From NCBI GenBank assembly GCA_041749335.1, contig JBGTBM010000007.1, positions 85,408-149,407 on the forward strand: a stretch of DNA of 64,000 nucleotides, written 5' to 3'. Under the pieces are notes generated by a model. The model was given only the letters and a program-made list of their open reading frames with translations, was not told where the DNA came from and ran no database searches. Source of the DNA: Patescibacteria group bacterium (GTDB taxonomy: Bacteria; Patescibacteriota; JABMPQ01). This document shows positions 19,903-57,172 of this stretch, piece by piece (within the stretch, counting starts at the first letter, position 1; each line of letters starts with the position of its first letter). Both the position numbers and the translations under genes were made by a program.

Positions 19903-21033
19903 ATGAAAATTTTTTATATCGCCACTACCGTCCATCTCGGTAAAAATTTAGACGAAGGCTTGGGCAGCACCACCCATACTTATTTTATTGCCAAGGAGCT
20001 TACTAAGTTGGGGCATGAAGTGCATGTAATTTCCAAAAGGTATTCCGATGATGCTAAATTTGAAATAATTAATGGCATTCAAGTACATCGTTTAAAAAGA
20101 GGAGTGGTGGCATCCGGAAAATCATTGGAAAAAAGCCCTTTTAAAAAATATTTTAAGCCGTTTAAGGCTTTTTTGAATATCGTTTTAGCTTATCAAATCT
20201 ATAAATTAGTGGATCAATACGGCTGCGATATAATTTTGGAACGGAACCATTCCTTGGGAGTCGGCGCACTAACTTCTTATCTGACCGGGCGCCCCTTGGT
20301 ATTGGAGGTGATTGATAGTATTTTAAGCAAATATTCGATCAAGCGGGCAAAACATATCATCGCCTATACCGACCGATTTTTTAGAAAAACCGATCAGTCC
20401 AAAGTTAAGTTGGTTAAGGTGGGTTTTGATCCTTCAACTTTTTATCCCGAATTTATGAAAACAAAGTATGATATTTGTTATGCGGGATCTTTCAAGCCTT
20501 GGGACGGCGTAGAAGATTTAATCGTGGCGATAAATTTATTAGTGAACAGATATCATTTAGATAAAGTCAAAGCGGTGATGGTCGGATCGGGAGAAGTTTT
20601 TGATCAGGCTATGAAACTTATCAAAAATTATAAACTGGAAAATAATATTATTATGGCGGGGCGGGTGGAAATTGCAAAAGTTCGAAAATATATCAATAGC
20701 TCGAAATTATGCGTGGCGCCTTATAATATTAAAAAATCCGATCGCGGGGAATTTGATAAATATGGATTCTATTACGCTCCGCTTAAAGTAGTTGAATATA
20801 TGGCTTGCGGAATGCCGATAGTGGCAACTAAGTATGTGATGATAAAAAATATATTGCCTCAAAACGGAGCAAAATATTTTGCCGAGGGCGATGTAGACGA
20901 TTTAGCCATTAATATTAAAGATGTGCTAAAATCCGATCAAATTTTAGCCATGGGAGAAAGTAATTTAAAGGAGTCCAAGAAATATACATGGCAAAAAGTG
21001 GCAGCGGATTTCGATCGAGTCTTTAATAGTTGA
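19903..21033 (+). CDS. Glycosyltransferase family 4 (GT-B)
   Basis: N-terminal GT4 domain (IATTVHLGKNLDEGLGSTTHTYFIAKELTKLGHEVHVI) and a GT1/4 C-terminal domain. Confidence 0.7.
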   Translation: MKIFYIATTVHLGKNLDEGLGSTTHTYFIAKELTKLGHEVHVISKRYSDDAKFEIINGIQVHRLKRGVVASGKSLEKSPFKKYFKPFKAFLNIVLAYQIYKLVDQYGCDIILERNHSLGVGALTSYLTGRPLVLEVIDSILSKYSIKRAKHIIAYTDRFFRKTDQSKVKLVKVGFDPSTFYPEFMKTKYDICYAGSFKPWDGVEDLIVAINLLVNRYHLDKVKAVMVGSGEVFDQAMKLIKNYKLENNIIMAGRVEIAKVRKYINSSKLCVAPYNIKKSDRGEFDKYGFYYAPLKVVEYMACGMPIVATKYVMIKNILPQNGAKYFAEGDVDDLAINIKDVLKSDQILAMGESNLKESKKYTWQKVAADFDRVFNS

Positions 21034-22192
21034 TTTGTCTAAATAAAACTTTTTCTAACTCTTTGGCAAGGTTGGGATAAAAATAATTTTGCGCCTTAAT
21101 ATGTCCGCTTGCTCCGAAATTATCTCGGAGATTTTTATTTTTGAGCAGTTTTTCCAATGCATTTTCCAGGGCAATTTGATCCCAAGGTTCAATCAATAAT
21201 CCATTTACGCCATTATCAATCACAAAAGGCACTCCGCCGGCATTTGTGCCAACGCTGGGTTTGCGCTGCGCCATTGCTTGTAAAAATACCTGGCCAAAAG
21301 CTTCATAACTGGATGGCAGAACTAAAATATCGCAGGCGGCCAGCGCGTCATTTTTATCTTGGCCGTAAAGTGGTTCCAGGATAAAAACATTTTTAATATT
21401 ATCTTTTATAATTATCTCCTTAAGCTGAGTAGTAAATTCCAATTTGTCATAATCTTTATCATCGGGGCCAATATAGACAAGTTTGGCATCCGGAATTTCT
21501 CTTTGGATATTTTTAAAAGCATCAAGCAGCATAAAAATTCCTTTTTGTTTGCGAATTCGCCCTAAAAATAAAATAATTTGGCTTCTGATGCCGAACCTCC
21601 GATAAAAGTCAGTTGGGCTGCCGGGTGTTAATTCATCTTTGGTTAGTCCACATGGAGTTTCATGGACTTTATTTAGATCAATGTCCTGTTTTTTCAACCA
21701 GGGGATTACAGCTTGAGTGCGGATAAATATATTTGTGCATTTATTAAAGATCCGGCGTGCAAAAAGGCGGTCAAACAGATCGAGCGGTATTTGCTTGTAA
21801 AAGGCTCGAGGCTTTTTTTGCGATTGGATGTCATAGAGCAACACGGAAAAAGGAATATTGTTTTTCCGGCAATACCTTAGTGCTTGCCAGGTTTGCGTCT
21901 GAGCATAATCCAAACTCATTACTGCGTCCAATTTATATTTACACATTTTTTTACTAATGCCCGGCCAATATTTTGCTCGATAAAAAAAACCATAGCTAGG
22001 TAGGCGATGAATTCTGACTCCTTCTATAACATCTTCAGGCTTATCGGCTTTCTTCGTAGCTTGGGTGAAAACATGGACTTCATGCCCCAAATTAGAAAGC
22101 TCTCTGGTGATATGCAGGGAATACCACTCAATGCCGCCGGCCATGTCGGGATAATAATTAGGGCAAATGTATCCGATACGCATATATTTCAT
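21023..22192 (-). CDS. Glycosyltransferase family 4
   Basis: ICPNYYPDMAGGIEWYSLHITRELSNLGHEVHVFT; EAFGQVFLQAMAQRKPSVGTNAGGVPFVIDNGVNGLLIEP (the E-X7-E-type motif region). Confidence 0.8.
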   Translation of the reverse strand: MKYMRIGYICPNYYPDMAGGIEWYSLHITRELSNLGHEVHVFTQATKKADKPEDVIEGVRIHRLPSYGFFYRAKYWPGISKKMCKYKLDAVMSLDYAQTQTWQALRYCRKNNIPFSVLLYDIQSQKKPRAFYKQIPLDLFDRLFARRIFNKCTNIFIRTQAVIPWLKKQDIDLNKVHETPCGLTKDELTPGSPTDFYRRFGIRSQIILFLGRIRKQKGIFMLLDAFKNIQREIPDAKLVYIGPDDKDYDKLEFTTQLKEIIIKDNIKNVFILEPLYGQDKNDALAACDILVLPSSYEAFGQVFLQAMAQRKPSVGTNAGGVPFVIDNGVNGLLIEPWDQIALENALEKLLKNKNLRDNFGASGHIKAQNYFYPNLAKELEKVLFRQINY

Positions 22193-22234: not shown

Positions 22235-23242
22235 TTAAAGTTCATTTGTTTCGCCGCAAACTTTGCATAGAGGCAGTTGACGTCTTTTCATCAGCTTGCG
22301 GGTTGATCTATATCTCTCACTATTCCAGATATTGTTAAAATTTTGTTCGAAAATATTACCCATCTTATATTTACCCTTAATATCATAACAACAAATGCAA
22401 ACAGTGCCGTCTGCCAAAATAAAACTGCGCTGGACATTGCTACAGGCAAAATCTCTTTTTAAGTTTTTTTCATTATCATATCGGCTTTTGCCGGAATCGG
22501 GCAAATATTCCGCTGCCAACTTATCGCTTTGTTCCCGGCTTAATATCCAGGAAGGTATTCCTAAAGATTTGACCGCGTAATCAACTTTTAAATCTTGCGC
22601 AATTTCTTTAAATTTATCTTTTTGCTGTTGATTTATTTTAGAAAAAATAAATTGCAATTCAATTTGCGGTTTTAGCTTTTTTTGAATTGTCTTTTCATTG
22701 TTGATGAATTTTATGGCGTTAATTACTTTATAAAAATCTCCGCCTTTGCGCATTTTTTGATAGGTTTCATTATCGGTGCCATCCAACGATACGATTAATT
22801 TATCTAGGCCGCTTGCGACAATCTTTTCGGCCGCGCCTTCATCGATTAAATTGGCATTACTGCTGGTAGTGGTATGAAGGTTATTCTGGTTAGCGTAGCT
22901 TACCATTTCTGTGAAATGAGGATTTAAGAAAGGCTCGCCGGCCAAAAAAAGCCAGATATGATGCGTGTGATTTTTTATTTTATTAATGGTTTGTTTAAAT
23001 TCATTTAAGGTCATCGCACGCCTGGGGCGTTCAATCAGGCAGGGCGGCGATGAGCAGAAATCACAATTTAAGTTGCAAACATTAATTGGTTCAATGCTGA
23101 TATTCCTGGGATAATTAAGAAATATTTGCTTGGGAAATATTTTAAATAAATGATAAATTTTGCCATAATCTTTGTTTTTATAATCCAGCTTTATTTCGTT
23201 TAGGTATCTTTTGGCGACGCGTTTAAATTTTTTTAAAGTCAT
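22235..23242 (-). CDS. Radical SAM protein with C-terminal SPASM/twitch Cys cluster
   Basis: CNLNCDFC (CX3CX2C) near the N-terminus. C-terminal CSNV...CICCYD...CKVCGE cysteine cluster. Confidence 0.75.
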   Translation of the reverse strand: MTLKKFKRVAKRYLNEIKLDYKNKDYGKIYHLFKIFPKQIFLNYPRNISIEPINVCNLNCDFCSSPPCLIERPRRAMTLNEFKQTINKIKNHTHHIWLFLAGEPFLNPHFTEMVSYANQNNLHTTTSSNANLIDEGAAEKIVASGLDKLIVSLDGTDNETYQKMRKGGDFYKVINAIKFINNEKTIQKKLKPQIELQFIFSKINQQQKDKFKEIAQDLKVDYAVKSLGIPSWILSREQSDKLAAEYLPDSGKSRYDNEKNLKRDFACSNVQRSFILADGTVCICCYDIKGKYKMGNIFEQNFNNIWNSERYRSTRKLMKRRQLPLCKVCGETNEL

Positions 23243-24168
23243 AGTTTTAGATAAGCGGTTAAGGCAACAATTGAAAATATAATTTCCAATAAAGTTAAAT
23301 ATAAAAAGGCATTCTGAAATTTATCCGTTTGTTCCGGGGAATCGTTTCCAATATTGAGTGAGCGTAGTCTTTTTTGTTCTCGGTCAAAGCTTTTTTTATA
23401 TAAAAAGTAATAAACTAAATAAGGGATCAGCAGGATCAAAAAAGGAATAATGGTATTTTGCAATATGGCGGCGCAGGCCACGATCGCTCCCAGGGAAAAT
23501 CTACCCACCTTGCCCAGTGAGAGTTTAGTATTGGTGAGATTATACATCTGTAAAAAAATGATGATACCACCGATCGTACTTAAAATCAGCTGCGACGTAT
23601 AGTTTTCTTCAAATACCGCCATGATAAATAAAGCTATCGTAATGATTGAGCCTAAAGCTAGATTTATTTTATTAAAGCTTTTAACGCCGTTAAAAAGCTT
23701 GGATGAAACAATGATGACAACGGGTACCGCGATAAAAAGGTAAATATTTGATTTATTTAAAGTTCCGTCAATAAAGGGATTATTTTGGTTAATAACGGCG
23801 GTTAATATGGGCATTATAGCGCAAATGAAAAAAATATTTCTTATTAAGTGAGTGGGGAATCGCAAAATATCATCAACAAAGCCGATAAAAGCGATAACCG
23901 CGATGCTTAAGAAGCTGGTGAAAAGCAAATAAGTATTTATATTTATATCGTCAGTGAAATTTTGAATGGTAAGAATAATGGAAATAACGATAAAAAAAAG
24001 CAATACGCTTAAAAGTCCTTCTAGGCTTTGTACGCGCGGTTTTTTGAATTTATTATTATCTTCGTTTCTAATCTTTTTCTTTTCTATCCAATTTTTTATA
24101 TAAGGAAATAAAGTAAAAGATAGTGTACTGGATAATAAGAAAGCGATTGTAACTAAAATCCAATTCAT
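23239..24168 (-). CDS. MraY/WecA-family paralog, degenerate (lacks PGxGG and NxxNxxDGxDGL motifs); possibly non-catalytic
   Basis: Polytopic membrane protein that shares GFVDDILRFP with the downstream paralog. It overlaps that paralog by 4 nt. The other catalytic motifs are absent. Confidence 0.45.
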   Translation of the reverse strand: MNWILVTIAFLLSSTLSFTLFPYIKNWIEKKKIRNEDNNKFKKPRVQSLEGLLSVLLFFIVISIILTIQNFTDDININTYLLFTSFLSIAVIAFIGFVDDILRFPTHLIRNIFFICAIMPILTAVINQNNPFIDGTLNKSNIYLFIAVPVVIIVSSKLFNGVKSFNKINLALGSIITIALFIMAVFEENYTSQLILSTIGGIIIFLQMYNLTNTKLSLGKVGRFSLGAIVACAAILQNTIIPFLILLIPYLVYYFLYKKSFDREQKRLRSLNIGNDSPEQTDKFQNAFLYLTLLEIIFSIVALTAYLKL

Positions 24169-25184
24169 CTATATAAATTAAATGTATGAAATATAAGGGC
24201 GATTACTGCGCATGAACCTTCAATGATCATTAATCTATGAACTAATTTTTTTTCGGTAATATTTTTTGATTTTTGCATTATCAAGTGGGTCAGTCCGTAA
24301 GCTTTTTTATATTCGCTTTTAATATTTCCCTGGCGGTCAATGACGCCTCTTTCTCTCGGCCTGGTTTTAATGGTTTTACGATCCCAGGTAATGCGCTGCT
24401 GCAATATTAAGTGTAAAAGATAAGGAATCATCAAAATTAACAGCGGATATTTAAGATTTCCTAAAATCGCTCCAACGGCAATGGCGCTGCCGGCGAAAAG
24501 AGTGCCGATATTGCCGCTAAAAATTTTGGCGGGAAACTTATTGTAAAAATAAAAGATAAGTAGTGCGCCGACCAAGGCGGCCAGAATAACCATGGCGGTT
24601 GTTTGATTAGATAAATAAGCGCAAATAAAAAGCGTAATTGATATTATTAAGCCGTTGCCGGGCATCAATCCGTCAAAATCCGCCATAATATTAATTGCAT
24701 TAGAAACAAAAACAATAATCAAGGGGACGATAATTAAAGGATAGATATAATGTAGATTGATATTTCCTAATAAGGGTACATTGAAAATAGTGCTTTGCCC
24801 GTACGCAATGGTCATCATTGGTATAGAGGCCAAGAGAGCAAAAATGGGCTTTATCGGTCTGATCGGAAACATTAAGATGTCATCTGTAATTCCCACAAAA
24901 GCCATAATGATGATTGATAAAATACCGGGAAGCAGTAGCACCAAATTAATACCATCAAAATCAAAAAGCATTTTTAAAGCGATGATGGCGGAAAGCGAAA
25001 AAAAGAAACTCAAAAGCAGGGCAATGCCGCCCAATCCCGGAATACGGCGCTGATCCAGCTTATTCATATCTGTCACGACAAATTTCTTGTATTTATGCCA
25101 TTTGATTACATAGGGAACCAGCCATAATGTTGATATGGTTGAAATTATGAAAGCGGTGATTGTTAAAAATAATTCTGATTTCAT
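24165..25184 (-). CDS. Polyprenyl-phosphate N-acetylhexosamine-1-phosphate transferase (MraY/WecA/GT4 family)
   Basis: RRIPGLGGIALL (KxxxPxxGG), GITDDIL, NAINIMADFDGL (NxxNxxDGxDGL) and FSGNIGTLFAGSA are all present. Confidence 0.75.
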   Translation of the reverse strand: MKSELFLTITAFIISTISTLWLVPYVIKWHKYKKFVVTDMNKLDQRRIPGLGGIALLLSFFFSLSAIIALKMLFDFDGINLVLLLPGILSIIIMAFVGITDDILMFPIRPIKPIFALLASIPMMTIAYGQSTIFNVPLLGNINLHYIYPLIIVPLIIVFVSNAINIMADFDGLMPGNGLIISITLFICAYLSNQTTAMVILAALVGALLIFYFYNKFPAKIFSGNIGTLFAGSAIAVGAILGNLKYPLLILMIPYLLHLILQQRITWDRKTIKTRPRERGVIDRQGNIKSEYKKAYGLTHLIMQKSKNITEKKLVHRLMIIEGSCAVIALIFHTFNLYR

Positions 25185-25362: not shown

Positions 25363-26205
25363 CTATATTTTACTTGATTCAATCTTTTCCCAATAGGTGC
25401 GATTATGCTTAAAATCCCACCAGGCCTTAGTCCAAGCCATAATGTCCAAAATAATATATAAAATCGTATAAGGATTTTTGAATATATACTTAATTTGGCT
25501 TAAGTTTCGCCTTTCGGAAATTTTCATGCCTTCTCGAGTAAGTTGCCACCAGCCGATGCGGTTGCGCGCTTTTTGTTTAATAAAATCAGATATGCTTTGT
25601 ACTGCCAGAACATAAGCAACGGCTTGGGGCTGATAGATTACTCTATGCCCCTGCTTTTTAATAAGCCATCCAACCAGAGCATCATCCAGTAAAAACTTGG
25701 TATCTATTTGCGGAGCGATGCTCTTTTTTACTCCCACCAGATATCCATTTAAAGCCCAAAATTTACCTGCATTATTTTCGGCAATTTTTTGCTCATTGAG
25801 GGCGATCCAGCCGGCATTTTGAATTTTATCAAAAAGGGTTTTTAGGCGATAACTTGCTACTTTTCCGCATGTAGCCGCCACCTTTTCATCCCTTAGGGTA
25901 TTCTCAATAATTTTAATTGCATCAGCGGCGATAATAACATCAGCGTCAATCATAATAATAATCTCATTTAGCGCTTGGCGCATAATTTTGTTAATGGCTG
26001 CAACCTTACCGGCTCTTTCTGTTTCTTCGATAATTTTTATCCGGGGATCATTGATTGATTTGACTTGGAAAACGGTGTCATCGGTGCAAGCGGAAGCGAT
26101 TACCAGTAGTTCATCGCCTTCTTCTAATTGTGGTAAAATTGTCTGAATAGTTTTTTTAATGCTCTTACCTTCATTATAAGCGGGAATTCCGACAGTTTTT
26201 AGCAT
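25363..26205 (-). CDS. Glycosyltransferase family 2
   Basis: VGIPAYNEGKSIKKTIQTILPQ...; DADVII (DxD). GT-A fold. Confidence 0.7.
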   Translation of the reverse strand: MLKTVGIPAYNEGKSIKKTIQTILPQLEEGDELLVIASACTDDTVFQVKSINDPRIKIIEETERAGKVAAINKIMRQALNEIIIMIDADVIIAADAIKIIENTLRDEKVAATCGKVASYRLKTLFDKIQNAGWIALNEQKIAENNAGKFWALNGYLVGVKKSIAPQIDTKFLLDDALVGWLIKKQGHRVIYQPQAVAYVLAVQSISDFIKQKARNRIGWWQLTREGMKISERRNLSQIKYIFKNPYTILYIILDIMAWTKAWWDFKHNRTYWEKIESSKI

Positions 26206-27231: not shown

Positions 27232-27237
27232 AAAAAT

Positions 27238-29688: not shown

Positions 29689-29742
29689 TCTATAATCAAT
29701 ATATTTGGAATTTAAAAATTGAATTTTGAAATTTGTTTGTTG

Positions 29743-29776: not shown

Positions 29777-29779
29777 TTT

Positions 29780-43678: not shown

Positions 43679-43698
43679 AATAATTTTAAATAATAGAT

Positions 43699-49608: not shown

Positions 49609-50359
49609 ATTTTTGACATACTAAACATATTCTACGCGCATTAATTTCTTCAGCTAGTAAAAAATGTTTTTTGTAATATTTATAAATATAATTTAATGAT
49701 TTTCGATGATTTAATATATAATACTTATTTGATAATGCTTTGGCGATGTATCTAATTATTTTAGACCTTTTATTTAGAAAATAAACTTCTTTAATCTTAA
49801 AATAACCTTTTAAGTATTTTTTTAATAATGTTAAGTTAAAATGTTGATAATGATGATTATCAACCGGTTCATTTGTACTGGGGACGCTTAAAATTAATAA
49901 GCCGTTTGAATTAATCAAATTATATATAGCCCGGATGAATTGATTTATCTCTTGAGGTTTAATATGCTCAAGAGTTTCTATTAATGTTGCAATATCAAAG
50001 GTGCTGCCAGCATGCTTGTCGTCTGTGATATCTTTATTAATAAAATTAATTTCAGGTGTAATAGCGCTGGCCATTTTTATCGCTCTTTGTGAATAATCAA
50101 TTCCAGAAAGAATCTTGCCGGGTATTCTTTTATTTAATTCATTTAAAAATTTTCCGTCACCGCAGCCGATATCAATAAGTTTAGTAAAATTTATATTTTT
50201 AAGAATGTTTAATATAAATGTAATATAAGCCGAATACTCATAACCCCATTTAATATATTTATTTTGAGAAAAAAAATTATCTGAAATTGTAATTAAATGA
50301 TGATATGGAAATCCATATTTATTCTCTTGAATTGCTTGTGGTTTATCAAGTTTAGCCAT
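49601..50359 (-). CDS. Class I SAM-dependent methyltransferase
   Basis: LIDIGCGDGKFL (motif I), ILSGIDYS, LLILSVP. Confidence 0.75.
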   Translation of the reverse strand: MAKLDKPQAIQENKYGFPYHHLITISDNFFSQNKYIKWGYEYSAYITFILNILKNINFTKLIDIGCGDGKFLNELNKRIPGKILSGIDYSQRAIKMASAITPEINFINKDITDDKHAGSTFDIATLIETLEHIKPQEINQFIRAIYNLINSNGLLILSVPSTNEPVDNHHYQHFNLTLLKKYLKGYFKIKEVYFLNKRSKIIRYIAKALSNKYYILNHRKSLNYIYKYYKKHFLLAEEINARRICLVCQKYE

Positions 50360-51278
50360 TTTTTCTTATATGGGGAGTAAAATAATTTTTATTATGATCA
50401 TATAAATGTAATCTTTTTCTGAGAATTTTGCTTATATTTTTAATTCTTTCATTATCTTTAAGCAAACAATCATAAAAGCCTTCCTTTTCCTTTATTTTAT
50501 CTTTGGCGGGCTTATGGTCTAAGTTTATCATTCTAAAGTCCATCATATGCAATTTTTCTCTGATTAATTGCTTGGCGATATTTTTTCTTTGAATGGCAAT
50601 GATATTTCTTTTGTTGCGGTAAGCATCATTATCCAAGTGGTAAACTTGAAGTGGTAGAGTTTTATGACTGATATTTAGAAATCCCTCTAATCTTTTTATA
50701 ATATCGGTATCACCAAGTTGCAAACCTTGAAATAGTATTTCATCAAACCCGCCAATTTTGTTAAAAATATTTTTATAAATTAACCCCATGCAGCCAATAG
50801 AGACGCTATTCGCATAATAATTAATATGGTATTTTTTTAAATCAGAAAAATTTGTATTTATGAGATCGTTAAAAAAATTATCATAGATGTAGAGCCTTGA
50901 AAATGGTGTAATGAAATATTTATTTTTGCGGTGGGGGAGGAGTGTGAGCCAACGGTACATTTTTTCAATCCCATTTTTGGGAATCAAAATATCGTCATCC
51001 ATAAATAATAAATATTCAGCTTGCGCTTTTTTTGCGCCATAATTTTTTGCCTGCGCCCAGCAATATCCGCCCCGATCTTTACACCAAAAATATTTAATAT
51101 TTATTTTTGGTTTAAATTGCTCAACTAATTTATCCGTATCAGAATTTCCACCATCGTCACACACCAAAACCTCAAAATTATTTTTATATGATTGAGTATT
51201 TAAAGAGATTAGAGTTTTTTTTAATAGCCCATTTCTATTTCTAGTCGCTATTATTATGCTCAGTTTAATATATTTCAT
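50352..51278 (-). CDS. Glycosyltransferase family 2 (tandem paralog)
   Basis: LSIIIATRNRNGLLKKTLISLNTQSYKNNFEVLVCDDGG; shares KYFWCKDRGG with its neighbours. Confidence 0.8.
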   Translation of the reverse strand: MKYIKLSIIIATRNRNGLLKKTLISLNTQSYKNNFEVLVCDDGGNSDTDKLVEQFKPKINIKYFWCKDRGGYCWAQAKNYGAKKAQAEYLLFMDDDILIPKNGIEKMYRWLTLLPHRKNKYFITPFSRLYIYDNFFNDLINTNFSDLKKYHINYYANSVSIGCMGLIYKNIFNKIGGFDEILFQGLQLGDTDIIKRLEGFLNISHKTLPLQVYHLDNDAYRNKRNIIAIQRKNIAKQLIREKLHMMDFRMINLDHKPAKDKIKEKEGFYDCLLKDNERIKNISKILRKRLHLYDHNKNYFTPHIRKNG

Positions 51279-52156
51279 TTATTGGTGCTATTGGCTAATT
51301 TTCTGCTAATATTATTAATAAATATTTTATTAGCAAGTAAATCTTCATAATATTTTTCAGAATGATTGATTAAGTCTTTTTGGGGACGATATTTTTTTTC
51401 ATACAGAAAACCCAAGTTAATAAATTTTTGTTTAATAAGGTTTTTTATCGAGTTAATATTTTTGCGCGCGTTATTATCTCTGGCTTTAAATTCGCTATAA
51501 TGGTTTAGATGATAGACTTTAAAAGGTAAAATCTTTCTTTTATTGTTCAAAAATCCCAATAAGCGGGCTCCCAATTCAATATCTTCATATATCCTACCGA
51601 CAAAAAGGATGTCGTCAAATCCTCCGATTCTTTCTATAATACTTTTATGAAATAATCCGATTGTACTTATACTTAAATTGCCCTTGTAAATTTTACCTTT
51701 TTCGTCTTTCTCAATATATTTATTAATATTTATTAAATTATTTTGGATGATGCCTAAGGGAATATTTTTTTTAACATGAATTCTCTCAATCGGAGTTACA
51801 TGAAATTTTGATTTTCGATAATTGTATTTTGCTATCCATCCATATAAGTTTCCAATGCATTTGGGAGGAAGTATGATGTCGCTGTCTAGGAACAGTAAAT
51901 AATTGCCTTGAGAATTATTCCATCCAATATTTCTGGCTGTTGCGGGACTCATTCCGCCTCTATCTTTATTCCAAAAATATTTAATATTTAAATATTTACG
52001 ATAACTTTTAATTATTTTGTCGGCTTTAATTTTTCCTCCATCATCGCACACCAAGACTTCAAAATCTTTATAGGTTTGATTAATTAAAGCTGTTAGGCAT
52101 CTTTTAAGATATTCATTTCTGTTTCGTACGGGTATTATAATAGATATTTCTGGCAT
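51275..52156 (-). CDS. Glycosyltransferase family 2 (tandem paralog)
   Basis: ISIIIPVRNRNEYLKRCLTALINQTYKDFEVLVCDDGG; KYFWNKDRGG. Confidence 0.8.
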   Translation of the reverse strand: MPEISIIIPVRNRNEYLKRCLTALINQTYKDFEVLVCDDGGKIKADKIIKSYRKYLNIKYFWNKDRGGMSPATARNIGWNNSQGNYLLFLDSDIILPPKCIGNLYGWIAKYNYRKSKFHVTPIERIHVKKNIPLGIIQNNLININKYIEKDEKGKIYKGNLSISTIGLFHKSIIERIGGFDDILFVGRIYEDIELGARLLGFLNNKRKILPFKVYHLNHYSEFKARDNNARKNINSIKNLIKQKFINLGFLYEKKYRPQKDLINHSEKYYEDLLANKIFINNISRKLANSTNK

Positions 52157-52157: not shown

Positions 52158-53297
52158 TCAACCTTTGATTATATTAAATAGTTTTTTAATTTGATTATCA
52201 TAATTAAACATTGTATCTGAATAAATTTTAGCGTTTTTAGATAACTCATTTAGTAAATACTTATCTTCAATCAATTTCAATATTTTTTCCGCGATATCTT
52301 TATAATTTTTTTCTTCAACTAATAACCCGGTTTTGTTGTGGATTATAATTTCTGGCATACCTCCGGAATTTGAAGCAATGCCTGGTGTACCGCACATAGC
52401 TGCTTCTGCCAGGACTACGCCCAAACTATCACATCTTCCATCTTTTGATCTTATGCTGGAATGAACTAATAATTCACTATTTTTCATATAGATTAATACA
52501 TCTTGATGGCTCATACTGCCCAAAAAATTTACTTTTTGGCTAACTTTAAGCTGCCGCGCTAGTTTTTTGCAGCGCTCTAATTCGGGTCCGGCGCCAATAA
52601 AATTAACTTCAACCTTGGGATAATTTTTTAAAACGATGGGCAAAGCCCTGATTAGAAATTCTTGCCCCTTCCAGTCAATAAATCTGCCGACGGATATGAT
52701 GCGAAAAATATCATCATTTGTTTTATCTACCTTTGGGATATCAATTTTAATCGCGGGCCGCCAGACTTGAATTTTATCTTTCGGAGCTCCCAATTTAACT
52801 AAATTTATTTTAAGGAAATTTGAGGTGCACAGAATTATTTTGGAATAATCAAATATCAGTGGCAATTTATTTTGATAATCTTTTTTATCGGGGTCAAAGG
52901 GATCGCGAGTGACATCTGCTCCATAAAAAGTAGTGATGTGGGGGAGATTATTTTGAATAGCTAAATCAATTCCTTTCTGGGCAGCCCAGCCAAAATGGCT
53001 GTGAACGACATCTATATTTCCCTTTTTAATATATTTATTCCAAAATAAAGTCGCGCCATCGCTTTTGGTTAACTTTCCCAAGGCCCGGTAATAATTTATT
53101 TTACATTTAGGAGCGTCTTTATAGCTATGAACAATTTTATGGCTGAAAGAGTCGGTATTAATAATTTTATGGCAAAAAATATCAGATTCAAAACCAATTT
53201 TTTCCAAACCTTTAATCTGTGAGTATATCCAGCTTTCCGTAACAGGTAGGAATTTGTCTAGTATTTGCGCGATTTTCATATATTTATATTTCCCCAA
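52158..53297 (-). CDS. Glycosyltransferase family 4
   Basis: Two-domain GT-B organisation; VLAEAAMCGTPGIASNSGGMPEIIIHNKTGLLV. Confidence 0.75.
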   Translation of the reverse strand: MGKYKYMKIAQILDKFLPVTESWIYSQIKGLEKIGFESDIFCHKIINTDSFSHKIVHSYKDAPKCKINYYRALGKLTKSDGATLFWNKYIKKGNIDVVHSHFGWAAQKGIDLAIQNNLPHITTFYGADVTRDPFDPDKKDYQNKLPLIFDYSKIILCTSNFLKINLVKLGAPKDKIQVWRPAIKIDIPKVDKTNDDIFRIISVGRFIDWKGQEFLIRALPIVLKNYPKVEVNFIGAGPELERCKKLARQLKVSQKVNFLGSMSHQDVLIYMKNSELLVHSSIRSKDGRCDSLGVVLAEAAMCGTPGIASNSGGMPEIIIHNKTGLLVEEKNYKDIAEKILKLIEDKYLLNELSKNAKIYSDTMFNYDNQIKKLFNIIKG

Positions 53298-53370: not shown

Positions 53371-53386
53371 TTGTAAATATTTAATC

Positions 53387-56300
53387 TTAGAGATGTTTCT
53401 TTAAATACCACTTAAATTTTTTATAAGCAGCGAATAGAATCAGAGCAAGGAAAAATAATATGGAATTTATCGCAATAAAGCTAAAAGTAAGCTGAACACC
53501 AGTAATTAATCCCGGATAAATACTATTCCAGGCTCTGAAGGGATCTTGTTCCGCTACTCTGACTATGCCGCGTGCTACAAATAACATAAAAAACGGAATT
53601 GCGATAGTCCGCAATGACTTGGTATATAGAAGCACAAACAAAAAGCAAAAAATAGCCGTAAAGTAAACTACCATGCCGCGGCTGGGCTTTGTGGTGTTTA
53701 ATTTAGTTTCAAAACCATAAGGGATTACTTTAGCCAGCAATAAATCAACGTTATCTTTCAGCCCTTTAATTACGCTGTATTTTTCGGATAGCGGTATGGT
53801 TTTTTCCACTGCCTTTTCCTCTTCGGCTGCAGCGGACGAACTAAACTTAAGAATTTTATTAATAGCAATTTCTTCCTGATTTAAATAAACGCTTTTAATA
53901 AAAATTTCATTGGCATTATCGTCTTTTCCTTTAAAGCCGATATTGATTTCTTCGCTGCCATAATATTCAAACGGGATTTCAAAATTGGAAGTAATTTCGG
54001 TATCAATCGTTTTTTCCGCGATTAATTCGCCATTTACTGATATTTGCAGCAGCGGCCAAATATTTTTATCAAGGCCATGAACATTGGCAATGACAGATAT
54101 TTTACTGTATTTGCGTGTGCAATCCCCGGAACAGGTAGTCGGAGATTCTCCCATTTCACAGATATTATTGCCGCACTCAACTTCGCTTATATTATATTTA
54201 ATATTAAAATTATCAATTGAATAAACTTCTTCCATATCAAAGTTTTCAAAATCCGTGTTGGTGAAAATTTCATAATTTTTGTCCGGCGATAGATTATTAT
54301 CAGCAATATCGCTGTTGTAATATTTCGCGATTGAAGCAAGATAGGAATCCGGATATAATTGTCCCACCTCTTTAAGCTTAATGGCCGCTTCTTGGTCAAT
54401 AAAATCATTATTGGCCAAATAATTTACCGCGCTATTTATTAGTTCTGTTGCCCGGTATTCGGCGATAGCCCGGTAAAGATTATTTTCAAGGCTATTTTCA
54501 ATATTCAGATATTGTCTTAACGCCTCCTTGTTTTTCCCCAGAGCTTCTAAATTAAATGCTCTAGACAGATAAATTATATTTTGTGCGTTGGGGTCTTTCC
54601 CATAAAATTTATTCAAGGCGGATAAGACAATAATTTCCTGCGCAATATTGCCTGCGTTTTTTTCTAAAAGCGCGTGATAAATTTGCAGCGCCTTTTCTTT
54701 ATTGCCATTTTCATTATGCGCCATTGCCAGCATTAAATTGATATTAAATTCCTCCGGGTAGTTATGGTAATTGACTATTTCATTAAAAACATCAATCGCT
54801 TTGGCATAATTTTTATTTTTTAAATATACTTCAGCCAGGTTTATTTTCATTTTAGGAACATAAGATGCCTCCGGATTTAGCTTGATAATGGTTTCATAGG
54901 CCTTGGTTGCTTTATCGTAGTCTTTAAGCTCCATAAAAATTATGGCAATTTGATGCATAACATCTGCAATATGAACATTATCGGGATAATCTTGGATAAA
55001 ATTTAAATAGTAATCAAGCGCTAATTTATAATAGCTTTCTTGATTAATATAGCCCTTTTTAAAACCAAAATAATCTTCTTCCTTGGTGGCGGCCTTGTTT
55101 AAATAATGGGCGGCCAGAGAATTAATCGCTTTGGCTTTTATATCTTTAATTTCACCGTAGTCAATAATTATTCGTTCCAGATTTTCTTGAGCCTGTAGTA
55201 TTTTACCTTCATTCGCTAAAGAGTTGGCGTATTCAATTTCTCTTTCGCCGTATGTTTCTTTGTCGGTTACTTCTTTATAGTAATCAATAAAATCAACCTC
55301 TCTGATGCTTTTATATAAATCCAAACTGTTAAATACATCCATTTTGTAATCCCAAATATATGCCTCGGCGGATAAGCCGGACAGGATAAATCGCTTAGTA
55401 TGATATTCCGTGTTGGGAATCAGCATTAATAAGCTAAAAACAAATACTACTAAAAATAATAATTTGTATGATATTTTTTTAAATACTCGCGCGGATAAAA
55501 TAATAATCAGCATTAATCCCATGAATGCAAATAGCAGCCGGATATTATTTCCTCCGGAAATAACGTTGGGCATAAAATAATTGCTCATAATCAAGCCCGT
55601 GTCGGTCGCGCCATGGTAGCCGATTGGCATATGCGCCAGCGCGCCGATAAAAATATAAATAAACATTATCAAGAAATAGGATGTAAAAGAAAAGATGATA
55701 AAAAATATTATATTGGTTAATTTTTTAATGTTAAGGGCCAGCCAAATTAAGAAGGCGCAAAATATGGCTAATAAAATATTGCTTAATACAAATATCAATT
55801 TTGCGTTATATTTAAATAATTTTTGATTATAGCCTAAATTGCGCGCTTTGATCTCTTTGATCTCATCCATAATATTATCATTGGGCGCTATTACTATCTT
55901 TTGGGGGTAATCCGCAATTAACTTGCGGGCGCAGCTATTATTTTTAAAACTTTCTGCAATTATTATCTTTTTCATTCCCAGGCCGGCAATTTTAAATTCA
56001 GCTACGCTGCAGTTTGAAACATTGCCAATAATTACTCCGTCAAAAGATTGGTTTACAAACAGCACCCACCTTAGGTATCCGGGCAAACTGCTATGTTTAT
56101 AAATTTTTATGCCTTGTTCATTGCCATATGTGGTATTGTCGGATGAATAGTTTAGTATCAACTTGGTTGGATTGGGAATTAATAAAGAAAAAATAACCAT
56201 GATAATAAAAATTGATAAACCGGCAAATGCAAAATCTTTATAGCTGAATTTTACCTTTTTTATTTTTAATTTTTCAAAATACAAAAATCCTAAAATGCTA

Positions 56301-57172
56301 ATTAAGATGATCAAAAAAATAATAATTTGGATAAAAGTATGAAAATTATAGTGATAATAAACTATGGCCGGGTTTGTAAAAGAGTGAAAAAAGTAGTTGC
56401 GCTCATCAATTTTATAGCTATTGGCAAAGTTATTGTCGCCGAATTTAATTACTTTGGTATTTTGGGGCAGCTGGATGGTAGCGGTATTGAAGCCCGCTCC
56501 GTTTACATTTATGGTTTCCCCCTGAAGAGGTGAAATAAAGCTTAAGCCCAAAAGGGAAGTAAAATGAGCGTGGGATACCAAAGTCAGCTCTTCTTGATTT
56601 GCGATGGAAGTAATGGTTTTGGATTTGGACGAATTTCCCGCCTGATCAATTACGGTAACATTCGCCGGAATCTGGATAGATCCTCTTAAATCTCTGATAT
56701 ACATCTTTACTTCCGCGATATCTTTGGAAGGCTTAAAAATGAAGGATTTATTGGGGGGACTGATTACTATTTTCCACTTAAAATTACCCCTTTTGGACAT
56801 ACTATAGCCGTTGTTGTCAATTTTTTCTTGCCAATCTACACCTGAATAATCGGCCGGTTCAACCGGGTCATATCCGTAGTCTTTTTTTAGATCAAGAAAA
56901 AATATGCCCAGCAGGACGCCAAAGACCAAACCCAATATCAATAAATAGGAAATCAGAATTTTTCTCCTAATTATTCTTGGCTTAACCCATTGATAAAAAG
57001 GCCGCAACAATTTACGTAGGCGATCCACCAAGGGCCTAAAAAAAACAAAAAACCTAGACAAATAGATACTTTTTAGTAGGTTTCTTAATCTTAGGTAAAT
57101 TGTCGTTTTTGTTTTTGCGATATATTGGCTTATTTTGGCCAATATTTTGTTTTTGTGTATATCCATCTGCAT
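53387..57172 (-). CDS. 1261-aa polytopic membrane protein with TPR repeats (possible O-antigen-ligase/oligosaccharyltransferase-like or polysaccharide assembly scaffold)
   Basis: About 10 TM helices in the central region (residues ~270-590). C-terminal TPR-like repeats (YYKLALDYYLNFIQDYPDN..., AIIFMELKDYDKATKAYETIIKLNP, NYAKAIDVFNEIVNY). A C-terminal TM pair. Confidence 0.6.
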   Translation of the reverse strand: MQMDIHKNKILAKISQYIAKTKTTIYLRLRNLLKSIYLSRFFVFFRPLVDRLRKLLRPFYQWVKPRIIRRKILISYLLILGLVFGVLLGIFFLDLKKDYGYDPVEPADYSGVDWQEKIDNNGYSMSKRGNFKWKIVISPPNKSFIFKPSKDIAEVKMYIRDLRGSIQIPANVTVIDQAGNSSKSKTITSIANQEELTLVSHAHFTSLLGLSFISPLQGETINVNGAGFNTATIQLPQNTKVIKFGDNNFANSYKIDERNYFFHSFTNPAIVYYHYNFHTFIQIIIFLIILISILGFLYFEKLKIKKVKFSYKDFAFAGLSIFIIMVIFSLLIPNPTKLILNYSSDNTTYGNEQGIKIYKHSSLPGYLRWVLFVNQSFDGVIIGNVSNCSVAEFKIAGLGMKKIIIAESFKNNSCARKLIADYPQKIVIAPNDNIMDEIKEIKARNLGYNQKLFKYNAKLIFVLSNILLAIFCAFLIWLALNIKKLTNIIFFIIFSFTSYFLIMFIYIFIGALAHMPIGYHGATDTGLIMSNYFMPNVISGGNNIRLLFAFMGLMLIIILSARVFKKISYKLLFLVVFVFSLLMLIPNTEYHTKRFILSGLSAEAYIWDYKMDVFNSLDLYKSIREVDFIDYYKEVTDKETYGEREIEYANSLANEGKILQAQENLERIIIDYGEIKDIKAKAINSLAAHYLNKAATKEEDYFGFKKGYINQESYYKLALDYYLNFIQDYPDNVHIADVMHQIAIIFMELKDYDKATKAYETIIKLNPEASYVPKMKINLAEVYLKNKNYAKAIDVFNEIVNYHNYPEEFNINLMLAMAHNENGNKEKALQIYHALLEKNAGNIAQEIIVLSALNKFYGKDPNAQNIIYLSRAFNLEALGKNKEALRQYLNIENSLENNLYRAIAEYRATELINSAVNYLANNDFIDQEAAIKLKEVGQLYPDSYLASIAKYYNSDIADNNLSPDKNYEIFTNTDFENFDMEEVYSIDNFNIKYNISEVECGNNICEMGESPTTCSGDCTRKYSKISVIANVHGLDKNIWPLLQISVNGELIAEKTIDTEITSNFEIPFEYYGSEEINIGFKGKDDNANEIFIKSVYLNQEEIAINKILKFSSSAAAEEEKAVEKTIPLSEKYSVIKGLKDNVDLLLAKVIPYGFETKLNTTKPSRGMVVYFTAIFCFLFVLLYTKSLRTIAIPFFMLFVARGIVRVAEQDPFRAWNSIYPGLITGVQLTFSFIAINSILFFLALILFAAYKKFKWYLKKHL

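Follow-up and report, generated by a model that had tools for sequence, protein, structure and literature searches.

The locus described here raises the question of what radical-SAM enzymes do within a glycan-assembly cluster, and whether their presence there implies peptide-type chemistry. When all ORFs of at least 100 aa were scanned against Pfam and NCBIfam, 34 contiguous genes, nearly all of them glycan-related, emerged at positions 19903-57172 of the window (the whole 64,000-nt stretch of DNA analysed). Since the gene of a B12-binding radical-SAM enzyme lies beyond position 57172, the end of the locus should be placed at 58661, which yields 35 back-to-back genes over approximately 39 kb. 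The preliminary description of a glycan locus of about 37 kb and 35 genes was thus right about a very large assembly locus, but set its end too early; the B12-binding enzyme that it included does belong here, though outside the borders it gave. On the right, this gene and the stop of uvrB share 4 nt, and on the left a single-domain response regulator (19483-19869) is separated by 33 nt from the first glycosyltransferase gene. Per-gene GC is 0.22-0.39 within the locus vs 0.41 for uvrB. Promoter and terminator scans of the locus gave signals no better than shuffled sequence. We posit, with moderate confidence, that 19903-58661 forms a single surface-glycan island, hypervariable, low in GC and probably shuffled horizontally, in which the radical-SAM enzymes modify sugars. 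Judging by features of the window, its bearer is probably a member of the Candidate Phyla Radiation (CPR/Patescibacteria).

Two initiating enzymes are encoded, as had been proposed, one DPAGT1/AglH-like and one PglC-like. The former, a polyprenyl-phosphate HexNAc-1-P transferase (24165-25184, -; PF00953, 94 bits), matches human DPAGT1 best among PDB entries (9e-14), far ahead of MraY (6e-5). It carries DD and NAINIMADFDG motifs, but Asn replaces the Asp of VFVGD, a metal ligand in DPAGT1. The degenerate MraY/WecA-family paralog that was also predicted is a multi-pass membrane protein (23239-24168, -; PF00953, 40 bits; no NCBIfam match), 32% identical to its neighbour, in which the NxxNxxDGxDG-type motif is lost and KLFNGVKSFNKIN stands in place of NAINIMADFDGL. 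Its gene overlaps both neighbours by 4 nt, so that the transferase, the paralog and the radical-SAM gene rSAM_tw1 form a chain. The second initiating enzyme, a small PglC-type phosphoglycosyltransferase (29726-30472, +; Pfam Bac_transf, 139 bits; NCBIfam EPS_sugtrans, 160 bits), carries a IDELLQLYNILKGDISFIGVRP motif with the Asp-Glu pair.

According to Pfam and NCBIfam, the locus encodes 15 GT2/GT4 glycosyltransferases with 16 catalytic domains, rather than the at least 16 proteins counted previously. Eight are GT4-type (Pfam Glycos_transf_1): GT4_a at the left edge (19903-21033, +; Glyco_trans_1_4 / Glycos_transf_1, E 1e-20), GT4_b (21023-22192, -; 117 bits), a short protein of 264 aa with the C-terminal GT-B half only (30508-31302, +; 48 bits over residues 126-241), GT4_d (33239-34438, -; 135 bits), GT4_e (37745-38893, -; 132 bits), GT4_f (39844-40947, -; 124 bits), GT4_g (46626-47792, -; 94 bits) and GT4_h (52158-53297, -; 142 bits). 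The seven GT2 proteins (Pfam Glycos_transf_2) are GT2_a (25363-26205, -; 78 bits; best NCBIfam match PgaC/NodC-like, below cutoff), GT2_b (32240-33013, +; 32 bits), GT2_c (36778-37755, -; 123 bits), GT2_d (38947-39849, +; 118 bits), the 614-aa two-domain enzyme already noted (47764-49608, -; two stretches, 190 bits), and its paralogs at 39-42%, GT2_e (50352-51278, -; 70 bits) and GT2_f (51275-52156, -; 92 bits). A 314-aa protein (31299-32243, +) that lacks any Pfam, NCBIfam or PDB match is possibly a divergent GT-B; against the GT4 profile of the window, hhalign aligned 39 columns around an E-x7-E-like motif at a probability of 6%.

Four methyltransferases were found. The FkbM-family enzyme (45834-46625, -; Pfam Methyltransf_21; NCBIfam fkbM_fam 99.5 bits, cutoff 37.7) bears out the earlier assignment, while the five class I enzymes listed beside it reduce to three: a weak methyltransferase-like protein (34467-35054, +; Methyltransf_11, 23.6 bits, barely over cutoff) and two SAM methyltransferases (35056-35706, -; Methyltransf_11, 37 bits; and 49601-50359, -; Methyltransf_23/25/12/11). 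The expected sugar nucleotidyltransferase is present as a short sugar-1-phosphate enzyme with a GalU-like N-terminal core (28069-28746, +; Pfam NTP_transferase; NCBIfam galU 130 bits, below cutoff). Smaller genes encode a 121-aa membrane protein with about three hydrophobic segments and no Pfam match (28749-29114, +), a 23S-rRNA-IVP family four-helix bundle that may be a passenger (29299-29688, +; PF05635, 63 bits), and a 241-aa protein (35945-36670, +) conserved in the related locus L002 (246 bits), for which neither a Pfam or NCBIfam match nor similarity to the GT2 profile was detected. Among the 35 locus genes, none carries an SDR-epimerase, DegT or Hexapep domain (Pfam), and no sugar dehydratase or aminotransferase of classical type is encoded.

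Three radical-SAM genes are present, two of the twitch type and the B12-binding one. The twitch pair, rSAM_tw1 (22235-23242, -) and rSAM_tw2 (40947-41873, -), had been described as SPASM enzymes, and both indeed match Pfam Radical_SAM and SPASM; the auxiliary domain, however, holds five conserved Cys (the BtrN-type four plus one extra) and not the 7-Cys set of SPASM. A twitch domain is a shortened form of the SPASM domain, and the single auxiliary cluster of BtrN has four Cys ligands (PMC9012708). Across 54 homologs of rSAM_tw2, C33/C37/C40 and C231/C249/C250/C296/C299 are invariant, the latter five being the only invariant Cys of the C-terminal domain, and C231, C249, C296 and C299 correspond in the alignment to the four Cys in the C-terminal domain of BtrN. 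rSAM_tw1, 32% identical to rSAM_tw2 over the full length, has a CNLNCDFC motif, and its C266, C284, C285, C326 and C329 align with the five invariant Cys of the family. The best PDB match of the rSAM_tw2 profile is BtrN (2.9e-24), with BlsE at 1.5e-15, and the top Foldseek matches of its AF2 model (pLDDT 95) are BlsE, BtrN, CteB and DesII, three of which act on sugars. By profile and predicted fold, both proteins are BtrN-like twitch enzymes whose nearest solved relatives are the sugar-acting BtrN, BlsE and DesII.

This speaks against the argument that SPASM-type enzymes signify peptide chemistry and are hence exotic in a glycan locus. Pfam and the AF2 model revealed no RRE, peptide-recognition or other extra domain in the twitch enzymes, and since they are also BtrN-like, the thioether crosslinks suggested earlier, or peptide crosslinks, are unlikely. 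Epimerisation, which was suggested as well, ranks with sugar oxidation and decarboxylation among the more likely reactions predicted from profile and model. A housekeeping role can be set aside, and none of the three radical-SAM proteins reached an NCBIfam curated-family cutoff, including that of the anaerobic sulfatase maturase; all three belong to uncharacterised families as judged by sequence.

The genomic context of the twitch enzymes is consistent with a function in glycan assembly. A GT4 gene lies directly 3' of each, GT4_b after a 42-nt gap to rSAM_tw1 and GT4_f with a 1-nt overlap with rSAM_tw2. Their CPR/DPANN relatives were found in glycan loci in five of five places seen, among them L001, which is the present organism's locus itself as represented in a different assembly. 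The order AsnB-like gene, radical-SAM gene, GT4_f is common to L001, L002 (68% identity) and L091 (84%), and a GT4_f homolog follows the radical-SAM gene immediately in L001, L002, L091 and L005. The Woesearchaeota homolog is surrounded by three GT9 genes, heptose genes, a GT4 and methyltransferases, the one in Nealsonbacteria by Bac_transf/methyltransferase on one side and a Wzx flippase on the other, and in Latescibacterota and Gemmatimonadota the gene sits within a GT2/GT21 - rSAM - GT2/GT21 cassette. Relatives at 33-46% identity (Bacteroidota, Cloacimonadota and other phyla) mostly stand alone in non-glycan contexts, so the twitch family overall is not glycan-specific.

The B12-binding-domain enzyme (class B type; 57249-58661, -; GC 0.26; Pfam B12-binding and Radical_SAM) has HpnJ as its best NCBIfam match (126 vs a cutoff of 578). 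Its homologs (45-52% identity, five lineages) lie in glycan loci in all five places. The PDB profile matches 9ccb, AprD4, OxsB, CysS and TokK are all distant and include methylases (TokK, CysS) as well as non-methylating enzymes (AprD4, OxsB), which leaves the label of methylase unproven.

Two AsnB-family genes were confirmed, one of them a divergent paralog. The typical enzyme, a glutamine-dependent amidotransferase (43699-45579, -; Pfam Asn_synthase 308 bits), has an MCGI N-terminus and SGGIDS, scoring 480 against NCBIfam asn_synth_AEB (above 267) and 597 against eps_aminotran_1 (below 817). The divergent one (41942-43678, -; Pfam GATase_7 74 bits, Asn_synthase 42 bits) is 31% identical to it over the N-terminal 280 aa only, retains the PP-loop SGGYDS, and has CGI at residues 9-11 with an ATT codon just before; its homolog in L002 is two separate ORFs. 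The giant TPR membrane protein is likewise real (1261 aa; 53387-57172, -; TPR only by Pfam), with an N-terminal membrane module of about 700 aa, TPR at about 735-905 and three C-terminal TM segments (TM prediction). The module is a near-orphan (28 clusters only in 1.84 billion representatives); relatives of the protein carry TPR, and CBM60 in two of nine scanned. Its AF2 model (pLDDT 82) gave no PDB fold match, whether to a GT-C enzyme or to any known polymerase or ligase of glycans.

An ABC-2 exporter pair is encoded as described, consisting of an ATPase (26332-27231, +; Pfam ABC_tran and DrrA1-3_C; NCBIfam drrA 261 bits vs a cutoff of 312) and a permease with six predicted TM segments (27238-28056, +; Pfam ABC2_membrane, weak drrB, hydropathy), the latter with one weak PDB match (8tsh_C 'transport permease', 3e-4). 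The top PDB matches of the ATPase are ABCA3, ABCA1, TM 4yer and NosF, and no Wzt, TagH or KpsT chain is among its best 60. 'Wzm/Wzt-like' is hence too specific, and by sequence the pair is a generic ABC-2 exporter (DrrAB/NodIJ-like). As the ATPase is DrrA/ABCA-like without any Wzt-type feature, its cargo might be something other than the glycan; the lack of Wzx, Wzy and O-antigen-ligase domains among the locus genes (Pfam) is compatible with ABC-dependent export. Approximately ten strand switches, the presence of two initiating enzymes and a step in GC near 30.5 kb mean that the locus may also comprise more than one pathway.

If the locus is a single surface-glycan island, as we favour, assembly would start on polyprenyl phosphate at the cytoplasmic face, through the HexNAc-1-P transferase and/or the PglC-type enzyme, and the chain would be extended by the 15 GT-A/GT-B transferases, including the GT2 with two domains and its tandem paralogs GT2_e and GT2_f. 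The three class I methyltransferases and the FkbM enzyme may decorate it, and AsnB-type amidation would most plausibly target a carboxylate such as that of a uronic acid. The twitch enzymes are predicted to abstract C-H hydrogen from a sugar, and the resulting keto sugar, epimer or decarboxylated sugar would be used or extended by the adjacent GT4. For rSAM_tw1, translational coupling with the initiating transferase pair is apparent and a GT4 gene follows; rSAM_tw2 is apparently coupled to GT4_f and adjoins the AsnB pair. The extra invariant C250, beside a cluster ligand, may serve as H-atom donor if the enzyme is an epimerase; compare NeoN, for which a Cys is mentioned as H donor, and HygY, mentioned as a twitch radical-SAM epimerase (PMC10991966). 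A further radical modification could come from the B12-domain enzyme, with C-methylation as the leading guess. Because Wzx/Wzy are missing, we propose export of the finished lipid-linked glycan via the ABC-2 pair, and the TPR protein may handle it outside the membrane.

In other glycan loci, sugar diversity is given by SDR epimerases/dehydratases and aminotransferases, and we posit that radical enzymes supply it here. As the nearest studied relatives of these enzymes modify sugars and not peptides, the locus appears unusual in form but familiar in kind.

The ORF map together with a Pfam and NCBIfam scan of all island ORFs resolves positions 19903-58661 into 35 genes packed back to back, most likely forming one low-GC, hypervariable surface-glycan island. 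Fifteen glycosyltransferase proteins are recognisable, eight of the GT4 type and seven GT2, and since one GT2 protein (47764-49608, -) carries two domains, the domain count is 16. The preliminary description, which placed the locus at 19903-57172 and counted at least 16 GT2/GT4 proteins, was correct about the two-domain enzyme and largely right about the gene inventory, in which five points had to be corrected. A 314-aa ORF (31299-32243, +) shows just a 39-column GT-B-like motif match to a GT4 profile (probability 6%), and a proposed GT2 assignment for the ORF at 35945-36670 (+) was dropped because no similarity was found. The two-domain GT2 and two further GT2 proteins (50352-51278 and 51275-52156, both -) are tandem paralogs with 39-42% identity.

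The island also encodes two PF00953 (MraY/WecA-family) paralogs, a small PglC-type phosphoglycosyltransferase, an ABC ATPase with an ABC-2 permease (26332-28056, +), a short sugar-1-phosphate nucleotidyltransferase, a canonical AsnB and a divergent AsnB-like protein, two proteins with Radical_SAM and SPASM matches, a B12-binding radical-SAM enzyme and a TPR membrane protein of 1261 aa (53387-57172, -). Three class I methyltransferases, where five had been proposed, accompany one of the FkbM family. Three ORFs without a family and one 23S-rRNA-intervening-sequence-protein gene (PF05635; 29299-29688, +), located just 5' of the PglC-like gene, complete the set. Domains of Wzx, Wzy, ligase, GT-C, SDR epimerase/dehydratase, aminotransferase or acetyltransferase type were found by Pfam and NCBIfam in 0 of the 35 island genes. 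The nucleotidyltransferase (225 aa) matches GalU models over 150 N-terminal residues only; we did not call it a truncated GalU pseudogene, as a protein of this size is in keeping with short nucleotidyltransferases and the following ORF encodes a membrane protein.

GC content by gene ranges from 0.22 to 0.39 within the island, compared with 0.41 for uvrB. A sharp GC break, 0.26 versus 0.41, coincides with a 4-nt overlap between the B12-binding radical-SAM gene (57249-58661, -) and uvrB (58658-60634, -), so that the island borders directly on a housekeeping gene, without an intergenic spacer. By composition the radical-SAM gene belongs to the island; it lies past position 57172, within which it had initially been placed. 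At the opposite end, a stand-alone receiver-domain response regulator of 128 aa, lacking an output domain (19483-19869, +), is located 33 nt 5' of the first GT4 gene, with which it may be co-transcribed. Predicted promoters (98 vs 96 and 135 vs 124) and terminators (18 vs 14 and 17 vs 11) were about as numerous as in shuffled controls, making both scans uninformative for splitting the locus into operons, and no riboswitch, cobalamin type included, was detected in the window at Rfam gathering thresholds.

Judging from hallmarks within the window, the source bacterium appears to be a member of the Candidate Phyla Radiation (CPR). These hallmarks are a split rRNA operon, three tandem PF18895 pilin genes, a FemAB gene and AT-richness. 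The 16S gene ends at 973, the 23S gene spans 8594-11486 and the 5S gene 11754-11866; between 16S and 23S lie tRNA-Ile, a 200-aa ORF, tRNA-Ala, tRNA-Val, a 206-aa ORF and an SdrD_B/CarboxypepD_reg surface-type protein of 1298 aa (4463-8359). The three genes with the PF18895 'T4SS_pilin' domain occupy 14197-15765 (+), and upstream of them are genes for a solute-binding protein and a full-length GalU-like nucleotidyltransferase (12000-12875). A separate islet with a GC of 0.30, 2 kb upstream of the locus, encodes a protein of 506 aa and about 11 TM segments (16240-17760, -) that had no Pfam, NCBIfam or PDB match and may act in the glycan system as a so far unrecognised polymerase, flippase or GT-C enzyme.

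Two types of putative initiating enzyme are encoded. The first (24165-25184, -) matches PF00953 with 94 bits and is closer to human DPAGT1 (9e-14) than to MraY (6e-5). It retains the DD and NAINIMADFDG motifs and reads IFSGN(IG) where DPAGT1 reads VFVGD; this Asn in place of Asp makes the catalytic competence of the DPAGT1-like transferase uncertain. The earlier view of a degenerate paralog beside it stands: that protein (23239-24168, -) keeps the DD motif and has lost the second motif (NxxNxxDGxDG), so that it is probably non-catalytic. The second type (29726-30472, +) matches PF02397 with 139 bits, has a hydrophobic segment at residues 33-51 and an IDELLQL motif with the Asp-Glu pair, and is predicted to be a monotopic phosphoglycosyltransferase of the PglC/WbaP C-terminal domain type. 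Of the two AsnB-family genes, the one for the canonical AsnB (43699-45579) encodes a protein with MCGIAG including Cys2 and an SGGIDS PP-loop that, with 480 bits, clears the TIGR01536 cutoff of 267. The divergent protein (41942-43678, -) keeps SGGYDS and has CGI at residues 9-11, just after an ATT codon (start region 43650-43680); an ATT start could give it the canonical M-CGI N-terminus of Ntn-amidotransferases. Its homolog in a close relative (L002) is split into two ORFs.

All three island radical-SAM genes match the PF04055 core, with CX3CX2C motifs reading CNLNCDFC, CNLKCPGC and CPFSCSYC. Two of them, rSAM_tw1 (22235-23242, -) and rSAM_tw2 (40947-41873, -), are paralogs over their full length (32% identity) that match PF13186, the Pfam SPASM profile, at 58-63 bits and had been described as SPASM enzymes. 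A full SPASM domain follows a seven-Cys pattern, CX9-15GX4C ... CX2CX5CX3C ... C, and binds two auxiliary [4Fe-4S] clusters. Alignments with 13 and 54 homologs show as invariant Cys (rSAM_tw2 numbering) the C33/C37/C40 triad plus C231, C249, C250, C296 and C299; the auxiliary domain reads C231-x12-G-x4-C249(C250), then C296-x2-C299, and since C299 is only nine residues from the protein end, the CX5CX3C segment is missing. The Cys count rules out a full SPASM domain. A truncated form that has a single set of Cys ligands, three or four in number, is known as the twitch domain (PMC9012708). The best PDB match of the family profile is BtrN (2.9e-24, covering both domains), followed by BlsE, and the four Cys of the BtrN C-terminal domain align with C231, C249, C296 and C299; the NCBIfam model N_Twi_rSAM matches the C-terminal part with 71 bits, under its whole-protein cutoff. 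Both enzymes are accordingly classified, on their sequence features, as BtrN-like twitch enzymes with a predicted single auxiliary cluster. In an AlphaFold model (pLDDT 95), the nearest folds by Foldseek are BlsE, BtrN, CteB and DesII, and sugars or nucleotide sugars are the substrates of three of them.

SPASM enzymes being best known for peptide substrates, peptide-type chemistry had been extended to this locus. Its premise fails for BtrN-like proteins without an RRE, and exotic chemistry of this kind is unlikely here. Neither twitch protein contains an RRE/PqqD-like or any other domain beyond Radical_SAM and SPASM, the core being preceded only by a helix of 22-45 residues, and the gaps flanking both genes are at most 68 nt, leaving no space for a precursor peptide gene. 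With the nearest relatives acting on sugars and the peptide-maturase NCBIfam scores far under cutoff, a RiPP maturase was ruled out. Curated NCBIfam cutoffs were reached by 0 of the 3 island radical-SAM proteins and 0 of 3 homologs tested; the best score of the twitch pair is 110 bits on TIGR04317 (cutoff 380), and 56 bits on rSAM_BlsE (cutoff 400) place the proteins outside the BlsE family. A housekeeping identity of the anaerobic sulfatase maturase type, named in the preliminary description as the case that would overturn its reading, does not apply: TIGR03942 is outside the top 25 NCBIfam matches of either protein, a homologous protein (P0091) scores 45 bits against its cutoff of 349, and anSME comes no higher than about 13th among the fold matches.

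The genomic context ties the twitch genes to glycan assembly. The genes for the DPAGT1-like enzyme, its degenerate paralog and rSAM_tw1 are joined by 4-nt overlaps, and a GT4 gene (21023-22192, -) follows 42 nt further on. rSAM_tw2 is preceded by the two AsnB-like genes and overlaps by 1 nt with a downstream GT4 gene (39844-40947, -). This second arrangement is kept in L001, L002 (68% identical) and L091 (84% identical); L001 is an independent assembly of the same organism and hence not an independent observation. A homolog from Woesearchaeota (43% identity) is surrounded by heptose-pathway genes, methyltransferases and three GT9 genes and is immediately followed by a GT4 gene, and a Nealsonbacteria homolog (45%) is flanked by a Bac_transf/methyltransferase pair on one side and a Wzx flippase on the other. 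A glycan locus was found in five of the five places where CPR/DPANN relatives were seen, one of which is this organism's own.

Beyond this subclade, the family is broad at 33-46% identity, with at least 598 encoded relatives in species-representative genomes. The best 80 of these loci belong mostly to Bacteroidota, Cloacimonadota, Gemmatimonadota and Latescibacterota, where the twitch gene generally stands alone amid unrelated genes. Exceptions are about a dozen loci among the 80, for the most part from Latescibacterota, Gemmatimonadota, Calditrichota and the like, in which a GT2-like ORF is the immediate neighbour of the twitch gene; a conserved cassette of GT2/GT21, radical SAM and GT2/GT21 was confirmed in both loci tested by Pfam (L035, 7899-12127; L021, 8091-12184). 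In these two loci (Latescibacterota, Gemmatimonadota) a peptidase S58 gene and a sodium:solute symporter gene follow the cassette; a Band_7 gene precedes it in L035, and a Band_7 gene is also present in our window at 18311-19234. A metagenome scan with a single radical-SAM protein as query yielded only two close loci. As the relatives from the genome scan are mostly of the FCB group and in non-glycan contexts, transfer of function across the whole family is limited: the link to glycan assembly is solid for the CPR/DPANN twitch subclade and does not extend to the family at large.

The third radical-SAM protein carries an N-terminal B12-binding domain (PF02310, 56 bits) ahead of the PF04055 core (68 bits). 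Its relatives form more than 4,600 database clusters, the nearest being just 52% identical, and are spread over groups that include Omnitrophota, Margulisbacteria and Kiritimatiellia in addition to DPANN and Asgard archaea. Conservation within the family is strong (mean column identity 58%, n=32 sequences). All five homolog neighbourhoods examined, from five lineages, are glycan loci: one with GT4, NeuB, a flippase and a second B12 radical-SAM gene; one in a Woesearchaeote, beside STT3/AglB; one with Wzy_C/PMT on one side and GT4 on the other; one with NeuB and EpsG; and one with PMT_2 and several GT4 genes. A second, more divergent B12 radical-SAM gene near the homolog recurs in several glycan loci (e.g., L007, 16618-18072; L097, 6149-7714), suggesting repeated use of such enzymes in these pathways. 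The solved relatives (9ccb, AprD4, OxsB, CysS and TokK; profile E 1e-9 to 1e-19) are all distant and functionally mixed, so that C-methylation is a reasonable guess for the island enzyme and nothing more. The best NCBIfam match is the hopanoid-associated HpnJ.

The exporter proved to be of a different kind than proposed. The ABC-2 permease half of the presumed Wzm/Wzt-like pair stands in a generic sense (PF01061, 37 bits; 6 predicted TM segments), with a lone weak PDB match to 8tsh_C, a 'transport permease protein'. The ATPase is best matched in NCBIfam by drrA (261 bits), then NodI and GldA, and its C-terminal extension matches DrrA1-3_C. Its top 60 PDB matches include ABCA, ABCB, NosF and TM1403 chains and no Wzt, TagH, TarH or KpsT chain; a Wzt-type ATPase was ruled out in favour of a DrrA/ABCA/NosF-like one. 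For the membrane module of the giant TPR protein, fold comparison of a predicted model revealed no structural similarity to PglB, ArnT, PMT or WaaL, and no PMT, STT3, ArnT or Wzy_C domain or fold was recognisable in this protein or in the 506-aa membrane protein.

Based on these data, we propose a pathway in which glycan synthesis would be initiated on polyprenyl phosphate by the DPAGT1-like and/or the PglC-like enzyme and the chain would be elongated in the cytoplasm by the 15 glycosyltransferases. O- or N-methylation and AsnB-type amidation may follow. The twitch enzymes would modify sugars radically, as dehydrogenase, epimerase or decarboxylase, each supplying its adjacent GT4, and the B12-domain enzyme would add another radical modification. 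The ABC-2 pair would then export the glycan, which the TPR giant may handle outside the cytoplasm. Protein families, Cys patterns, operon coupling and context conservation are observed, and from them we infer substrates, reactions, export route and acceptor. That a 39-kb locus with 15 glycosyltransferases has zero classical sugar-tailoring enzymes makes the radical enzymes a plausible source of sugar diversity. More speculatively, and in a form that we think unlikely to hold as a whole, the twitch and GT4 module might constitute a dedicated O2- and NAD-independent route to rare sugars in CPR, DPANN and other anaerobes poor in sugar-nucleotide tailoring enzymes, with the separate, highly conserved class B enzyme adding a C-methyl or other radical change. 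Such sugars may include epimers, keto and decarboxylated forms, made on nucleotide- or lipid-linked intermediates; the module is here operon-coupled to an initiator and its dead paralog, which might present a lipid-linked substrate, and the TPR giant would be a new extracytoplasmic polymerase, ligase or anchor.

The island might instead be a mosaic of at least two independent glycan pathways side by side, each block with its own product, which we regard as possible while leaning against it. Its blocks, just as tentative, would be a left one (19.9-30.5 kb) with the DPAGT1-like initiator, rSAM_tw1, the ABC-2 exporter and PglC, and a right one (30.5-58.7 kb) with the AsnB pair, rSAM_tw2, the tandem GT2 paralogs, the TPR protein and the B12 radical-SAM enzyme. 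Two different initiating enzymes, a coding strand that changes about 10 times along the island and GC values that drop in a step near 30.5 kb (0.33-0.39 to the left of it, 0.22-0.35 to the right) are consistent with this division, and twitch paralogs as divergent as these could serve one pathway each. L002 and L091 show right-block homologs only, in recovered stretches that are, however, too short to prove the left block absent. With a single exporter pair and no Wzx/Wzy, the right block alone would have no recognisable export route, and the small IVP gene is the sole non-glycan interruption of the region. We also hold it doubtful that the system glycosylates proteins such as pilins, S-layer or large surface proteins, with the TPR giant as transferase or acceptor-recognising scaffold. 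A DPAGT1/AglH-type initiator, as in N-glycosylation, together with a PglC-type enzyme, would suit this role, as would the STT3/AglB (Woesearchaeote) and PMT or PMT_2 genes adjoining B12 radical-SAM homologs, the tendency of TPR domains to bind proteins, and the pilin-like genes and 1298-aa surface-type protein in the window. Yet no STT3, PglL/Wzy_C, PMT or other GT-C domain occurs in the window, the TPR membrane module does not structurally resemble PglB, ArnT, PMT or WaaL, and fifteen glycosyltransferases with tandem GT2 paralogs point to a long or repetitive glycan.

Two further alternatives concern the radical enzymes themselves. They could be mere neighbours of the glycosyltransferase genes and act on the polyprenyl carrier, a membrane lipid, a cofactor or a peptide, which appears quite improbable to us. 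Many twitch relatives at 33-46% identity (Bacteroidota and other phyla) are indeed stand-alone in non-glycan contexts, the lipid-modifying GDGT-MAS is among the PDB matches, HpnJ leads the NCBIfam matches of the B12 enzyme, and the Latescibacterota neighbours are GT21-type, resembling lipid glycosyltransferases. The lipid and cofactor family scores are nevertheless all far under curated cutoffs, and the nearest solved relatives are sugar-acting by profile and fold alike. Neither an RRE nor a precursor-peptide ORF is present, the genes are translationally coupled to glycosyltransferase and initiator genes, and a glycan context recurs in 5/5 twitch places, including the island itself, and 5/5 B12 places across CPR, DPANN and other anaerobes. 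That the B12 radical-SAM gene alone falls outside the glycan system, as a uvrB-linked or stand-alone gene merely abutting the island, we consider very improbable. Its same-strand 4-nt overlap with the uvrB stop codon and its position beyond the originally described coordinates could be read this way; set against this are its island-like GC and the five sampled homologs, of which all lie amid glycosyltransferases, flippases, NeuB, STT3, PMT or Wzy_C and none beside uvrB.

Returning to the reading that we prefer, one surface-glycan island with radical sugar modification, the question arises of what it adds. CPR and DPANN genomes lack much of the usual sugar-tailoring enzymology, and their surface glycans probably mediate host attachment and phage resistance; to our knowledge, none of these glycans has been structurally solved. 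The function of the two radical-SAM families, both placed repeatedly in glycan loci of many anaerobic lineages, could reveal new sugar chemistry in the form of anaerobic epimerisation, oxidation or C-methylation of building blocks. Annotation would gain as well, given at least 598 twitch relatives in species-representative genomes and more than 4,600 protein clusters of the B12 family, and the orphan TPR membrane protein offers a separate lead to an unknown envelope-assembly step. Large glycosyltransferase-rich loci and radical-SAM genes beside glycosyltransferase genes have been noted before, for example in a Brachyspira plasmid block (PMC4267127), which was the nearest mention in the literature searched; there we found no functional study of the twitch or B12 family and nothing specific on radical SAM in CPR glycan loci, SPASM in polysaccharide loci or B12 radical SAM in capsules. 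The locus as such is of a known kind. Newer are the twitch and GT4 module, once coupled to a pair of initiating transferases, the recurrent, conserved and uncharacterised B12 radical-SAM glycan family, the absence of classical tailoring enzymes and the orphan TPR membrane module. We therefore see the finding as a good lead for enzyme discovery that does not overturn expectations.

Among known systems, the island as a whole resembles the ABC-dependent O-polysaccharide and teichoic-acid pathways (WecA/TagO with Wzm/Wzt or TagGH) in its putative PNPT-family initiator, its many glycosyltransferases including a two-domain one, its possible chain-capping methyltransferases and its ABC-2 permease and ATPase without Wzx/Wzy. 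It differs from them in an ATPase lacking the Wzt carbohydrate-binding extension, in an initiator nearer to eukaryotic/archaeal DPAGT1 than to bacterial MraY, and in having no WaaL-type ligase or LCP transferase. The canonical AsnB shares with the 'eps_aminotran_1' amidotransferases of XrtA/PEP-CTERM systems a full-length two-domain architecture, Cys2, the PP-loop and a glycosyltransferase-rich locus. It scores, however, 597 bits on the exopolysaccharide-associated TIGR03108, under the cutoff of 817, and is paired with a strongly divergent paralog. The WbpS-like amidotransferases of polysaccharide loci presumably provide a further comparison. With class B radical-SAM enzymes, among them the methylases TokK and CysS and the non-methylating OxsB and AprD4, the B12 enzyme has in common the order of a B12-binding domain and then a radical-SAM core, whereas its family is associated with glycan loci, uncharacterised and distant from all solved members.

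For the twitch pair, the closest comparisons are modifiers of carbohydrates. BlsE, a cytosylglucuronate decarboxylase, and DesII, a TDP-sugar deaminase, are radical-SAM modifiers of sugars or nucleotide sugars; BlsE leads both the Foldseek matches (1e-14, TMq 0.67) and the PDB matches found with a single sequence, and DesII ranks fourth by fold, but the likeness of both to the window proteins is mostly in the radical-SAM core. NeoN and HygY are reported to be twitch-type radical-SAM carbohydrate epimerases with a conserved Cys as hydrogen-atom donor (PMC10991966). In the window family, too, a single Cys is invariant in addition to the four cluster ligands, and purely by this analogy C250 could be put forward as a candidate hydrogen donor. 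BtrN, the prototype twitch enzyme, oxidises a sugar-like alcohol (PMC9012708). As the 2-deoxy-scyllo-inosamine dehydrogenase of the butirosin pathway it abstracts hydrogen from a C-H bond of a carbohydrate-like substrate, and it shares with the window enzymes the CX3CX2C radical-SAM core and a short C-terminal four-Cys domain, ranking second among the fold matches. Identity is only about 18%, and the window family adds the invariant C250 and a longer insert between core and twitch domain. BtrN belongs to an aminoglycoside cluster, whereas the twitch family of the window is found in glycan loci beside GT4 genes.
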